NCBI RefSeq assembly: GCF_056712565.1
Contig: NZ_CM160072.1
Length of the DNA stretch: 64,000 nt
Direction: 5' to 3' (one strand)
In this document: positions 42,001 through 57,000 of the stretch, in pieces
Layout of the letters: the number at the start of each line of letters is the position of its first letter
Numbering within the stretch: the stretch's first letter is position 1
Position numbers: made by a program

Positions 42001-45000
42001 TACGGCGAGCGCGTCGGCGGACTTTCTGTTCTGTGTGAAGATGCCGAAGCCGCAGGCCGCGTACTGGGGCAATTGAAAGCAACCGTTCGCCGCAACTACT
42101 CCAGCCCGCCGAATTTTGGTGCGCAGGTGGTGGCTGCGGTGCTGAATGACGAGGCATTGAAAGCCAGCTGGCTGGCGGAAGTAGAAGAGATGCGTACTCG
42201 CATTCTGGCAATGCGTCAGGAACTGGTGAAGGTATTGAGCACAGAGATGCCAGAGCGCAATTTCGATTATCTGCTTAATCAGCGCGGCATGTTCAGTTAT
42301 ACCGGTTTAAGAACCGCTCAGGTTGACCGACTACGTGAAGAATTTGGTGTCTATCTCATCGCCAGCGGTCGCATGTGTGTCGCCGGGCTTAACGCGCAAA
42401 ATGTGCATCGCGTGGCAAAGGCGTTTGCTGCGGTGATGTGATTTTAATCAACAGGCGGATCTCTCCGCCTGTTCCTGACTCCAGCCATCCCCTACTATTC
42501 TGTCCCTTTTTTCGCCCACTTTTACATCATCTCTTTTCTATAAGTTTTTGAAAATTAGTGTTTTTAACTGTTGGTACGGATTGTGCAGTAATGCGGCTGT
42601 CTATGACCATCAGGAGAAAAACATGGAGAACATGACCTCGCCCGGCACGCTGCTTAGTGGAGATAACGCGACCTGGCTTGAAGAGTACTACCAGACCTGG
42701 TTGCGTACGCCGGAACAACTCCCGGAAGACTGGCGGCGTTTTTTTCTTTCACCTGAACTGACTGTCCAAAGCGTATCCGGTGATAACAACGTCAGCGGTG
42801 CGACGTTAAAAAAACAGGCTGCGGTAATACAACTGATCAATGCCTGGCGCACGCAGGGGCATCTGCGCGCAAAGCTTGATCCACTTGGTTTGAATCCCCC
42901 AGCTGACGTTCCCTCCCTCCAGCCTGGTTTTTGGGGATTAAGCGAAGAAGACTTGTTGCAGGAGTTTAGCGTCACCTTTGGCGCACACACCACGCAAATG
43001 CCACTTAAGCAACTGCTTAACCTGCTGGAGCAAGCCTGGGCCGGTAGCCAGGCTTATGAACTTGCTCATCTGGAAAATCGTGAAGAAATCAACTGGTTGT
43101 TATCACGGATTGAGAGCAGCAATGCGCCACAAGCTGATGCCCAAACCTGCATTGCCCGTTTTGAAAAACTGATGGCGGCAGAGACGTTAGAGCGTTATCT
43201 GCATACCCGTTATGTTGGGCAGAAACGGTTTTCTCTGGAAGGGGGCGAAAGTGCAATCCCGGCGCTCGATACGCTGACAAAACGCCTGCGTGCGCAAGGT
43301 GTGGAGGAAATGGTCATTGGCATGGCGCACCGGGGAAGACTTAATGTTCTGGTTAATCTGTTGAATAAAGACCCGGCACAGCTTTTTGCTGAGTTTGAAG
43401 GCAAGCAGACGATCGGCAGTGGTTCAGGCGATGTGAAATACCACATGGGGTATTCCAGCAATCTGGAAACACCTGCCGGTTCGCTGCATGTGGCGCTGGC
43501 GTATAACCCCTCACATCTGGAGATCGTGAATCCGGTGGTGCTGGGCCAGGTGCGAGCCAGGCAGGAACGCCGTGGTGAGGATGGTCAGGCAAAAGTGGTG
43601 GGCGTACTTATTCATGGGGATTCCGCGTTGGGCGGCCTCGGCGTCAACCAAACCACGTTTAACTTATCGCAGACTCAGGGCTACGGCACTGGCGGTACGC
43701 TACATCTGGTGATTAACAATCAGATTGGCTTCACCACTTCCCGCTTGCAGGATATGCGTTCTTCACGGTACTGCACCGATATTGCCAAAATGGTAGCGGC
43801 CCCAATTATCCACGTTAATGGCGATGACGTTGACGCTGTTTGCCAGGTAATGGAACTGGCGTGCGAATGGCGAGACACCTTCCGGCGCGACATCATCATC
43901 GATATTTGCTGCTTCCGTAAGCACGGACACAACGAAAGCGATGAGCCACGTCTTACCCAGCCACAAATGTATCAGGCAGTGGATGCTCACCCTGGTACGC
44001 TCGCCCGTTATGGTGAATCTCTTGCCCGCCGCGGCCTGTTAACTCAGGCGCAACAAGATGAGATGACGGCACGCTATCGCGACTGGCTGGATAGCTGCCA
44101 GAAACGTGAACCGCAGCCTCTCAAACCTGCAATTCACTCTTTTAGCGCTAACTGGTATGGGTTGACCAACCCTCACTGGAGCGCCCCGGTATCTACGGCA
44201 TTGCCTCGGCAAAAGCTGGCAGCGTATGGTGAAATCATTTCTACACTGCCACCCGATGTGGTCGCACATCCTACCATTAAACGGCAACTGGCGTTACGCC
44301 AGGATATGGCCGCAGGTACTCAGCCAATAGACTGGGGAATGGCTGAAATGCTGGCCTATGCATCGCTTGTGGATGCGGGTGTTGGTGTGCGTCTTTCTGG
44401 TGAAGACTCAGGGCGTGGCACGTTCAGTCATCGCCATGCAGTGGTACATCATCAAACTGAAGCCCGTCGTTATCTGCCGTTACAGCATATCCGCGCTGGT
44501 CAGGCATCTTTCGATGTTTATGATTCGGTGCTTAATGAAGAAGCGCTCTTAGCCTTTGAATATGGCTATTCAACGTCTGCGCCTCAGCAACTGGTTATTT
44601 GGGAAGCGCAGTTTGGTGACTTTGCCAACGGCGCTCAGGTTGCTATTGACCAGTTTATCTCGTCTGGCGAAACCAAGTGGGATCGCTATAGCGGTTTAAC
44701 CATTCTTCTGCCGCATGGCTATGACGGACAAGGGCCGGAGCACTCTTCTGCGCGTCCTGAGCGCTGGCTGCAACTGTGCGCAGAAAACAACATGCAGGTG
44801 GTGATGCCCAGTGAGTCAGCACAAATGTTCCATTTGCTGCGCGGTCAGGCATTACGCCCAATGCGCAAACCGTTAGTGATAATGATGAGTAAGCGTTTAC
44901 TTCGGTTTAAAGGCGCTATGAGCGAGCTTTCTGAATTCACTGATGGCGCTTATAAACCGGTAGTCACCGATCCGCAATTGCATCAGTCCCAGAAAGTTAA

Positions 45001-54000: not shown

Positions 54001-57000
54001 TCTAGTCCTGATATTCCAGGTAACCTGACATCGGTCAGTATAATAATGTTGGCTTGACTTTGAATAAGGGGAATACTGTGTTCTGCATCGCAACAGGAAA
54101 TAACACGATAACCAGCCAGCGTGAGCGTTTGTTCACAGGCAAAACGTACATCGTCACTATCCTCAATATAAACTATAGTAATTTCACTGGATTTATTATT
54201 CATGTTCTTCTCCCCATTCAGGCCAGGTTAATGTCATTACTGCGCCGCCTTCAGGATGATTACTGGCGTGGAGTGCGCCGTTCGAATTTCGGACAATTTC
54301 GCTGACTATTGCCAGTCCCAACCCCATTCCTCTACGTTTAGTGGTAAAAAATGGTTCAAATATGCGATCGACAACTTCAGGTGCAAAACCGCCACCGCTG
54401 TCTTTAATGGTAATAATAACTTTGTTATTTGCCTGGCGAATGGCGATATCCAGTCGTTTGTAAGAGCTACCTTCCATAGAATCTAAGGCGTTGCTAATTA
54501 AATTACTGAATATCTGTTCAAGACCGAGCTCATCGCAATTGACAAATAACGGCATGGATGGGGCTTTTATTCGTCGCTCAATGTTATTTTTCTCCATGCT
54601 GTGATTAAGTAACGCCACGGCGCTATACATCACTTTGATGACATCGGCAGAACCTTTAGGTACGCGATGGCGCGAGGCAAATGCTTTAAGTTCGGAAATG
54701 AGCTGCGTCATCCGCTCAATCACTGAAATAATGTGTTTCAGATTCTGTTCAACCTGCGGATACATCTCTTTTTTTAGCATAGTACGCGCGTTATCAGTAA
54801 GTGCGTGAATGGCGGCTAACGGTTGATTTTGTTCATGGGCAATTTCGGTTGCCATCTGTCCAAGCGCCGCCAGTTTGCTGGACTCTGCCAGTTCACTACG
54901 CGTAATTTGTAATACTTGTTCAGCCTGACTGCGCTCTTTTATCTCCTGTATTAATTTTTGATTGATCAATTCCAGGGCAGATGTACGCTCTTTAACCTGT
55001 TTTTCTAATGTTTCATTCGCCAGTGTTAATAATTGTTGTGCATGAGATCGCATTCTCCAGTATTTAATAAATAACAAAAACAGCAGGTAAATAATTAGTG
55101 TAATGACTAACGAAATAGCCCATGACCAGTACAGGTTATCTAAGGGGACCATAATTGTCATTTTCCAGTTAAATTCTGGAATGGCTATTTGTTGCGTATA
55201 ATATTGCGGGAATAAACAGAGTTGTTCTTTTTTATCTTTCAGGAAAGTAAAATTGCTCACGGTATAACAGGGATAATAATCCGCCGGTAAAAGATTGTCG
55301 AGACTATATTGACGGGTAGATTGTAGTTTTTGTTTTGCCTGAACAGGTAACGGTTGCAGTGTTCGCATTCGCCATGGCGATTTTGAACTTAAAAATATAA
55401 TCCCATGTTCATCATTCACGATAATATTTTCAGGACCTTCGGCCCATGCTTTTTCAATTTCATTAAGACTTATTTTTACTACTACAACACCGACAATTTT
55501 TCCTTTATCTTTTATACTTGTAGAGAGGAAGAATCCCGGTGTATTTGTAGTGCTACCAATACCGTAAAAGCGTCCATTTAAGCCAGACATGGCGTGTTTA
55601 TAATAGGGGCGATAGCTATAATTTTGCCCTACATAGCTGCCGGGGTCCTGCCAGTTGCTAGAAGCGATGGCCTTACCTTGGGTATCCAGAATAAATATTG
55701 CTGCGGTTTTGAGTTGAGTATTGAAATGTGCAATTCGTTGATTGAGTTCGCTGGACGTCATATCGTCAGGCGTAATTACCGCCTGACGGATGATATGGTC
55801 TGTTGAGAGCATATAGGGTAAAACATAAAATTGCTCGATGGTGGAATATAATGTGGACTTATACATTTCAAGCCGCATTTTATCGGTACCGGACAAGGTA
55901 TTAAAACGCAAGTGCAAAAAAGCGATTGAAACCGCGAGCATGATAAGAAAAAGTGAAATGCTTGTAATGTGAAATCGCCATTTGTTCTTAAATATATAAT
56001 TCCACGATATTTTCATTCATCATCCATTGAATGCATTTATATTTATCATCAGTATATTCCCTGAACAATGTTTGCGAGAACCAAAAGAGTGCCATTGTGT
56101 GAATGTGTAAGCAGAATAACCGTGGCAATGTGTGGTTTATCGCACAGGTATTCCAAATGTGATCATGCTCTTTTTATGTGACAAATCCGCAGATAATCCT
56201 TCCTTTCCCCCGCGGTTGGCGTTATGGTCAGATGGTTTTTTCAACAAACGCACAATAATAAGTTTCAACTTACTGACTATTTAGGGAAAAATATGCGCAA
56301 GATCACACAGGCATTGAGTGCCGTTTGCTTATTGTTCGCTCTAAACAGTTCCGCTGTTGCCCTGGCCTCATCTCCTTCACCGCTTAATCCGGGTACTAAC
56401 GTAGCCAAACTCGCTGAACAGGCGCCAATTCATTGGGTTTCGGTTGCACAAATTGAAAATAGCCTCGCAGGACGTCCGCCAATGGCGGTGGGGTTTGATA
56501 TCGATGATACGGTACTTTTTTCCAGTCCGGGTTTCTGGCGCGGCAAAAAAACCTTCTCGCCAGAAAGCGAAGATTATCTGAAAAATCCTGTGTTCTGGGA
56601 AAAAATGAACAATGGCTGGGATGAATTCAGCATTCCAAAAGAGGTCGCTCGCCAGCTGATTGATATGCATGTACGCCGCGGTGACGCGATCTTCTTTGTG
56701 ACTGGTCGTAGCCCGACCAAAACAGAAACGGTTTCAAAAACGCTGGCGGATAATTTTCATATTCCTGCCACCAACATGAATCCGGTGATCTTTGCGGGCG
56801 ATAAGCCAGGTCAAAATACAAAATCGCAATGGCTGCAGGATAAAAATATCCGAATTTTTTATGGTGATTCCGATAACGATATTACCGCCGCACGCGATGT
56901 TGGCGCTCGTGGTATCCGCATTCTGCGCGCCTCCAACTCTACCTACAAACCCTTGCCACAAGCGGGTGCGTTTGGTGAAGAGGTGATCGTCAATTCAGAA

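Follow-up and report, generated by a model that had tools for sequence, protein, structure and literature searches.

The tyrB-aphA segment of the Escherichia coli type strain very probably corresponds to the KguS/KguR alpha-ketoglutarate utilisation island of CFT073

In the uropathogenic Escherichia coli (UPEC) strain CFT073, the genes c5032-c5041 make up a genomic island that separates tyrB from aphA, and the two-component system encoded there has been named KguS/KguR (Cai et al. 2013, PMC3694859). In this study we analysed a 13,851-bp tyrB-aphA stretch that lies in a 64-kb window (the whole piece of DNA under analysis, to which all coordinates refer) and that was 100% identical, in a database match, to the chromosome of E. 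coli ATCC 11775 (= DSM 30083). An earlier note on this DNA had recognised the stretch as the alpha-ketoglutarate (KG) utilisation island of CFT073, c5032-c5041, reported in 2013, and had considered it probably described rather than new. The comparison with CFT073 bore out both statements, since the proteins turned out to be 98-100% identical and the island has been characterised experimentally in CFT073 (PMC3694859, PMC5318444, PMC8716947). Judged from its sequence, the stretch is very likely the published island and would act as it does in CFT073; the island is an already characterised system, not a new one.

The inducer of the CFT073 system is KG, and not glutarate, 2-hydroxyglutarate, glutamate, succinate or fumarate (PMC3694859). 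The membrane-bound kinase KguS responds to KG, and in anaerobiosis KG induces c5032-5037 and c5038-5039, for which both KguS and KguR are needed; the two operons were demonstrated by reverse transcription PCR, and KguR shifts promoter fragments of both in the electrophoretic mobility shift assay (EMSA) (PMC3694859). The island genes are required for anaerobic, not aerobic, growth on KG, this anaerobic requirement is specific to KG and does not extend to C4-dicarboxylates, and the island and kguSR mutants lose in competition in the mouse urinary tract (PMC3694859). RpoN is required for the transcription of c5038, whose start was mapped to 30 nt upstream of the initiation codon (Cai et al. 2017, PMC5318444). 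In the kguR mutant the mean log2 change of the cluster was -7.99, and direct autoregulation of kguSR was reported together with a consensus for the KguR operator (2021, PMC8716947). The expression of kguSR in CFT073 is also raised by anaerobiosis.

The gene coordinates in the window came from our own list of open reading frames, which was concordant with the RefSeq annotation of the ATCC 11775 record, and both sources placed nine intact genes between tyrB and aphA (Table 1). The genes, their order and strands and the 914-residue E1 listed in the earlier note were all found intact where it had put them. The CFT073 chromosome (NC_004431.1) carries the nine genes in an unchanged order, again flanked by tyrB and aphA. 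Over the 13,851 bp the two DNA sequences are 99.24% identical, with 105 substitutions and no gaps. Identical residues amount to 909 of 914 in E1, 382 of 384 in E2, 463 of 472 in E3, 388 of 389 in SucC, 355 of 357 in the Ldh_2-family protein and 605 of 606 in KguS, and the RefSeq protein accessions of SucD, the transporter and KguR are shared with CFT073. The substitutions are clustered in the E3 gene (32 at 46442-47441) and around the sucD-c5038 intergenic region (18 of the 105 at 49942-50441), the latter being the most diverged part of the island. This collinearity, the common tyrB-aphA site, and the shared operators and sigma-54 promoters described below imply that the window carries the same system as CFT073. 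As the earlier note had it, K-12 carries yjbS alone at this position: the MG1655 spacer is 1,106 bp long, and in the window it has been replaced rather than interrupted.

Table 1. Coordinates of the tyrB-aphA island, its proposed regulatory elements and other annotated features. Positions refer to the 64-kb window, except for the transporter-Ldh_2 pairs, which are numbered within their own loci. Paired values are the score in bits and the curated cut-off.
Feature	Coordinates	Strand	Basis or remark
Proposed KguR operator, E1 operon (TGTGTG-N13-CGCGCA)	42374-42398	+	Consensus match, inside tyrB 3' end
Island-linked divergent patch, tyrB 3' end	42388-42411	+	9 substitutions/24 bp vs K-12
tyrB end	42441	+	RefSeq annotation and open reading frame list
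Sigma-54 -24/-12 element TGGTACGGATTGTGCA, candidate E1 promoter	42572-42587	+	GG-N10-GC kept; 36 bp before E1 start
2-oxoglutarate dehydrogenase E1 (c5032 orthologue), 914 aa	42623-45367	+	NF006914 1214.8/764; thiamine diphosphate (ThDP) motif
Dihydrolipoyl succinyltransferase E2 (c5034), 384 aa	45400-46554	+	NF004309 551.2/449; lipoyl-lysine motif (DKV), DHRIIDG
Dihydrolipoyl dehydrogenase E3 (c5035), 472 aa	46566-47984	+	TIGR01350 481.7/408.8; CLNVGC redox disulfide
Succinyl-CoA synthetase beta, SucC-like (c5036)	48006-49175	+	NF001913 531.5/370
Succinyl-CoA synthetase alpha, SucD-like (c5037)	49188-50060	+	NF004230 469.7/336; GHAGA phosphohistidine motif
Intrinsic terminator after sucD	50077-50104	+	8-9 bp GC-rich stem, then T-run
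KguR operator, transporter operon (TGTGCGGAAAACCGCGCAtA)	50136-50155	+	Consensus match at 50136-50153
Sigma-54 promoter of c5038 TGGCATAGCTCCTGCA	50216-50231	+	GG-N10-GC, 41 bp before c5038
DASS-family dicarboxylate transporter (c5038), 499 aa	50272-51771	+	TIGR00785 240.9/198.6
Ldh_2-family oxidoreductase (c5039), 357 aa	51783-52856	+	PRK10098 best NCBIfam match, 279.9/336
KguR, NtrC-type sigma-54 activator (c5040), 452 aa	52845-54203	-	Pfam Response_reg, Sigma54_activat, AAA_lid_14, HTH_8
KguS, DctB-like sensor histidine kinase (c5041), 606 aa	54196-56016	-	Pfam dCache_1, HisKA, HATPase_c
KguR operator upstream of kguSR, palindrome TGTGTGGTTTATCGCACA	56129-56146	.	Consensus match
aphA start	56293		RefSeq annotation and open reading frame list
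Transporter-Ldh_2 pairs, Cupriavidus necator and Bordetella loci	L022 5446-8050; L024 5497-8056		
Rfam matches	3977-4173, 6076-6361, 13895-13965, 18124-18285		Rfam gathering level

Protein families were called with NCBIfam profiles at their curated cut-offs and domains with Pfam. All five enzyme subunits (E1, E2, E3, SucC and SucD) and the transporter scored above the cut-offs, and a motif check of the five enzymes found every catalytic motif looked for (ThDP, lipoyl-Lys, DHRxxDG, CxxxxC and GHAGA). Neither KguS nor KguR reached a named NCBIfam equivalog at its curated cut-off. KguR has the receiver, AAA+ and Fis-type helix-turn-helix layout of the NtrC family, with D58 and a GAFTGA motif at residue 222, and its score against the NtrC profile (379.2 bits) is under the cut-off of 558.6, which makes it a member of the NtrC family and not NtrC itself. 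KguS is laid out like a DctB-like kinase: dCache_1 at residues 50-228, HisKA at 385-448 and HATPase_c at 495-600, two hydrophobic segments (13-41 and 294-322) and H394. The 3' end of kguS and the start of kguR overlap by 8 bp. At the other end of the pair, c5039 and kguR converge, with their 3' ends overlapping by 12 bp (52845-52856), and no terminator was found between them; if c5038-c5039 is strongly transcribed from its sigma-54 promoter, antisense reading into kguR should consequently result. According to tblastn coordinates, the same end-to-end overlap of c5039 and kguR occurs in Escherichia albertii, Citrobacter and Klebsiella indica, and the two genes are 538 bp apart in Vibrio.

The operator consensus TGTG(T/C)G-N5-15-C(G/A)C(G/A)CA matched the 64 kb exactly three times, once upstream of each island operon. 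Two of these matches have counterparts verified by EMSA in CFT073, namely the sites of the transporter operon and of kguSR (PMC8716947), the latter without any difference from CFT073. The match belonging to the E1 operon is listed for CFT073 in Table 3 of PMC8716947 and falls inside an EMSA probe of PMC3694859. The window holds 56 sigma-54-like motifs where 44.5 are expected, a number not above chance, and the two island elements are thus informative through their positions only. The element before c5038 is identical in CFT073 and fits the published transcription start and RpoN dependence (PMC5318444). The candidate element before E1, TGGTACGGATTGTGCA, is likewise the same in CFT073 and was assigned from its position and motif. 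The intrinsic terminator behind sucD fits two separate catabolic operons.

The same layout was found in more distant loci. In E. albertii, Citrobacter, K. indica and a Vibrio the transporter gene is preceded by a -24/-12 element with the palindrome about 60-70 bp further upstream, and in every comparison locus the matches to the KguR consensus were confined to such intergenic regions. This conserved operator-plus-promoter layout, as predicted from these sequences, lends the regulatory model independent support from comparison. Across five taxa the kguSR operator is the best-conserved element of the region upstream of kguS, and a sigma-70 -10-like box, AATATACT, is invariant there (56017-56200 in the window). 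The invariant box suggests a sigma-70-type -10 element for kguSR. A sigma-54 promoter for kguSR was considered and finds no support in conservation: the only -24/-12-like element (56079-56094, minus strand) is without the -12 GC and is not conserved. The sigma-70-like box is at odds with the reported direct activation of kguSR by KguR, a sigma-54 activator (PMC8716947).

On the right, homology to K-12 returns at roughly 56155-56183, some 110-140 bp short of aphA, and on the left it seems to end at the tyrB stop codon. Within the last ~55 bp of tyrB, however, lies a patch that is far more divergent than the rest of the gene, which differs from K-12 by about 2%. In island-bearing strains this patch alters three C-terminal residues of TyrB in comparison to K-12, and it creates, within the tyrB coding sequence, the CGCGCA half of the operator proposed for the E1 operon, a half that is missing in K-12 tyrB. 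In a sample of 5,426 complete E. coli genomes, which also served for the counts given below, a window-like tyrB 3' allele (defined as at least 95% identity) was found in 1,044 records and the island in 1,043 genomes; the two figures were compared as totals, not genome by genome. In all other genomes the tyrB 3' end is 87-91% identical to that of the window. The near-equal totals indicate that the exchanged segment, as delimited here by sequence comparison, begins inside tyrB.

From these components and the CFT073 data, the island would operate as follows. The periplasmic dCache domain of KguS would sense KG outside the cell, and the kinase would phosphorylate KguR at Asp58. Phosphorylated KguR would bind palindromes situated roughly 70-185 bp upstream of the -24/-12 promoters, where its AAA+ domain, through GAFTGA, would open sigma-54 holoenzyme complexes. 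KG imported by the DASS transporter would be converted by the private E1-E2-E3 complex (KG + CoA + NAD+ to succinyl-CoA + CO2 + NADH), and the private SucCD would turn succinyl-CoA into succinate with substrate-level formation of ATP. In this way the island enzymes may replace the housekeeping sucABCD/lpd products, which in the absence of oxygen are subject to repression or inhibition. The Ldh_2-family enzyme would be co-induced with the transporter.

None of the observations speaks against the identification as the CFT073 island, but several points weigh against equating the locus too closely with that of CFT073. The experimental data all come from CFT073. In the c5038 operator the window has CAtA at an outer base where CFT073 and E. 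albertii have CAcA, and this change, together with the position of the operator in the most diverged intergenic region, means that expression levels could differ from those in CFT073. The operator of the E1 operon is a pattern match located within an EMSA probe, and the promoter type of kguSR cannot be read from the sequence. Moreover, direct binding of KG by KguS is a prediction, as are the role of the Ldh_2-family enzyme, that of the dedicated E3 and the coupling mode of the transporter.

The enzymes of the island duplicate steps for which K-12 already has housekeeping genes. Island E1 shares 49% identity and 64% positives with K-12 SucA, and E3 is 39% identical to K-12 Lpd; the 64% positives of E1, and the 48% positives of the transporter with CitT, agree with the values given in PMC3694859. 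With identities to the paralogues of 39-49%, the island enzymes are old and not recent duplicates. This age, nine intact reading frames with their catalytic motifs, the absence of indels among the 105 differences from CFT073, the maintenance of the module with its own regulator across genera, and the published mutant phenotypes (PMC3694859) make it extremely improbable that the island is a redundant, decaying copy of sucABCD-lpd that has no separate role, even though its enzymatic steps are the same as those of the housekeeping genes. A shift in specificity is another way to account for an E1 with just 49% identity to SucA: the complex might act mainly on another 2-oxoacid (e.g., 2-oxoadipate) and use KG as a side activity, and the undefined specificity of its Ldh_2 partner leaves room for such a substrate. 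However, the score of E1 far exceeded the curated threshold of the 2-oxoglutarate dehydrogenase E1 equivalog, and KG is specific both as the inducer and in the anaerobic growth requirement (PMC3694859), so that we consider this explanation very unlikely. We also considered whether the dedicated E3 might be insensitive to NADH. The island E3 carries Gln at residue 360, which corresponds to Glu354 of Lpd, and the Lpd E354K change makes pyruvate dehydrogenase NADH-insensitive (PMC7240943). The enteric orthologues also have Gln, but the Vibrio orthologue has Asp; the residue is thus not kept across the module and offers at most a weak hint of NADH insensitivity, and the idea was not retained.

The published KguS/KguR island has also to be weighed against a self-mobile pathogenicity island, driven by an integrase or transposase, or a plasmid-borne element. 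The distribution is patchy, with the island present in 1,043 of the 5,426 genomes (19%), and the G+C content of the kguSR end (0.38-0.45) is below that of the enzyme genes (0.51-0.55). At the same time, the K-12-type yjbS spacer occupies the site in 4,332 genomes (80%), and since the two alternatives together account for 99% of the genomes, the locus is essentially biallelic. Both junctions are situated within or beside conserved core genes. A tRNA scan of the 64-kb window found no tRNA, a repeat scan no flanking direct repeats at the island boundaries, and the RefSeq annotation lists no integrase or transposase in the island. Two 'plasmid' records in PLSDB match the island; the 27-kb record contains dnaB, alr and tyrB, which identifies it as a mis-assigned chromosomal fragment, and the second, of 834 kb, was judged by its size alone, and plasmid carriage was rejected. 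Self-mobility or carriage on a plasmid is therefore extremely improbable, and the segment was probably exchanged by homologous recombination through the flanking tyrB and aphA.

Orthologous modules lie beside aphA in E. albertii (KguS 92% identical), in three Citrobacter species (77-78%) and in K. indica (72%). In Pectobacterium aroidearum the nine genes stand in the same order at another site, between glnG/yshB and hemN-yihI-engB-polA, and one Vibrio holds all nine in a rearranged layout. The module is an old, portable unit. The sources of E. coli isolates bearing the island include humans, poultry, pigs, wild marsupials (possum and bandicoot) and water, and the island is lineage-linked rather than pathotype-specific. 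The claim in the earlier note that it is a strong marker of an extraintestinal-pathogen-like genome consequently goes too far, as the island also occurs in isolates from animals and water, and orthologous modules exist in other genera. Two further database records concern the module. Searched by tblastn, the module proteins of E. coli matched a metagenome-assembled genome labelled Flavobacteriia (L008) with almost the identities seen for the Vibrio sp. Y2-5 locus, and the best-matching segment of a 252-bp Chryseobacterium contig (L012) is 100% identical to E. coli KguS; both records have the appearance of mis-binned or contaminating sequence in public assemblies.

The transporter c5038 and the oxidoreductase c5039, which the earlier note had singled out as less well defined, are indeed the least described members of the island, c5039 being listed as of 'unknown function' in the published papers. 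The transporter belongs to the DASS family and shares 27% identity and 48% positives with CitT; its matches in the PDB (VcINDY, DiT2.1, LaINDY and DiT1, 71-95 bits) include a symporter and exchangers at about equal scores. At the hairpin tips it has SAT (residues 164-166 and 405-407) in place of the SNT of VcINDY, so it lacks the SNT at both tips that marks a VcINDY-type Na+ symporter, and the SAT motif is the same in all orthologues checked and is kept as far as Vibrio. The Asn of each SNT motif helps to form the Na+ sites in the VcINDY structures. The replacement makes the RefSeq name 'sodium-coupled symporter' doubtful for c5038.

The Ldh_2-family protein c5039 is 34% identical to K-12 HcxB/YbiC, with which it has the SHG and HHxGRxG motifs in common, and its nearest structure is 2g8y. 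Its score of 279.9 bits is below the PRK10098 threshold for an HcxB/YbiC equivalog (at least 336 bits), and it is accordingly assigned to the Ldh_2 superfamily only. In a database search the orthologous group of c5039 was confined to module-bearing taxa. The next tier (45-51% identity) consists of proteins from Betaproteobacteria, among them one from Cupriavidus necator that carries the name L-lactate dehydrogenase at NCBI. In C. necator and Bordetella an Ldh_2 gene (45-48% identity) lies 10-13 bp downstream of a transporter gene whose product is 60-63% identical to c5038, and no dehydrogenase, synthetase or two-component genes were found near either pair. As the pair stands alone there, the transporter and the Ldh_2 protein form an independent cassette.

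These observations allow an extension of the KguS/KguR model, more than a rival to it. The island might carry out a redox-balanced dismutation of KG, in which a Na+-independent DASS exchanger is combined with an Ldh_2 enzyme acting as an NADH-dependent KG reductase; the latter would re-oxidise the NADH made by the private dehydrogenase, and product would leave the cell in exchange for incoming KG, giving the net conversion of 2 KG to succinate, CO2, 2-hydroxyglutarate and ATP. The idea that c5039 is a 2-oxoglutarate reductase leans on what we take to be the properties of the HcxB/YbiC family. In favour of the dismutation, the Ldh_2 gene is kept with the module in every genus examined and its pairing with the transporter persists where the rest of the module is missing; the C. 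necator partner bears a lactate dehydrogenase name, HcxB/YbiC, the nearest E. coli paralogue, is annotated 'hydroxycarboxylate dehydrogenase B', the transporter tips differ from those of VcINDY, and CitT, the closest characterised relative of the transporter in E. coli, is annotated as a citrate:succinate antiporter. In addition, the founding enzyme of the Ldh_2 family is a lactate dehydrogenase of Alcaligenes eutrophus, going by a reference cited in PMC8632094. However, the published growth tests contained trimethylamine N-oxide as an electron acceptor, so that no fermentative sink was needed (PMC3694859), and 2-hydroxyglutarate goes unmentioned in the metabolomics paper PMC8716947. Moreover, the transporter scores do not separate the symporter VcINDY from the exchangers LaINDY and DiT, oxaloacetate/malate or another 2-oxoacid would suit the Ldh_2 family equally well, and both roles are predictions drawn from the protein sequences. 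We therefore regard the dismutation as possible, with the balance tilted against it. A redox valve composed of an exchanger (c5038) and an NADH-dependent reductase of 2-oxoacids (c5039) is a tentative proposal that we would not presume, and that c5038-c5039 is an ancient separable cassette making the island a self-contained, redox-balanced KG fermentation seems rather unlikely to us. If the fermentation were real, the island would be more than a stand-in for repressed enzymes of the tricarboxylic acid cycle, and a prediction would follow for UPEC in the kidney, namely the release of 2-hydroxyglutarate, a metabolite that acts on the host.

The window contains other accessory DNA close to the island. 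Between alr and tyrB (39614-41166), where the K-12 spacer is 252 bp, lie pnuC and a gene for a NadR-like nicotinamide mononucleotide adenylyltransferase/AAA ATPase, which scored 143 bits against TIGR01526, under its cut-off; the pair represents a second small accessory insert beside the island and is also present in CFT073. A 7-kb accessory cluster (29809-36971), present in CFT073 as well, occupies the qorA-dnaB interval, which in K-12 is a spacer of 82 bp. It encodes a 682-residue flavoprotein resembling fumarate reductase and aspartate oxidase, a metabolite/H+ symporter of the major facilitator superfamily, an enoyl-CoA hydratase, a fused FadX-like CoA transferase and a divergent LacI-family regulator. 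At the Rfam gathering level the window matched a lysine riboswitch before lysC, four naRNA4 (REP-type) elements and STnc430, and inside the island there was no match at this level.

The island is already well recognised as a metabolic fitness factor, and its detection in the type strain brings no fundamental insight. The additions made here are small: the tyrB junction with the operator half-site, the biallelic locus, the portability of the module across genera, the transporter-Ldh_2 cassette and the Asn-less hairpin tips. Compared with the CFT073 KguS/KguR island, the locus has the same site, gene order, operators and sigma-54 promoters, and differs in its strain background, in 105 substitutions and in one base of the c5038 operator. 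The housekeeping sucABCD and lpd genes of K-12 specify the same reactions with the same domain architecture. However, K-12 sucAB borrows Lpd, whereas the island operon has its own E3, and the K-12 suc genes are served by the aerobic sdh-suc promoter, whereas transcription of the island responds to KG and anaerobiosis through a sigma-54/KguR promoter. With CitT, VcINDY, LaINDY and DiT1/DiT2 the transporter c5038 shares the DASS fold, above the family cut-off, but it is roughly equidistant from the symporter and exchanger branches, and its SAT tips are unlike the SNT of VcINDY. Similarly, c5039 is a member of the Ldh_2 family (PF02615), together with HcxB/YbiC, the C. necator 'L-lactate dehydrogenase', AllD, YiaK, ComC and DpkA, and is distinguished from these by forming its own orthologous group that always adjoins a c5038-type transporter. 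On the regulatory side, MifS/MifR of Pseudomonas aeruginosa is a similar dicarboxylate two-component system, and in rhizobial DctB/DctD a periplasmic double-Cache kinase and an NtrC-type sigma-54 activator likewise switch on a dicarboxylate transporter gene. The periplasmic domain of KguS is 25.3% identical to that of DctB (PMC3694859). The signal of the Kgu system is a C5 2-oxoacid, whereas DctB/DctD respond to C4-dicarboxylates, and its regulon includes a complete private catabolic pathway, in contrast to the DctB/DctD type, which controls the transporter alone.

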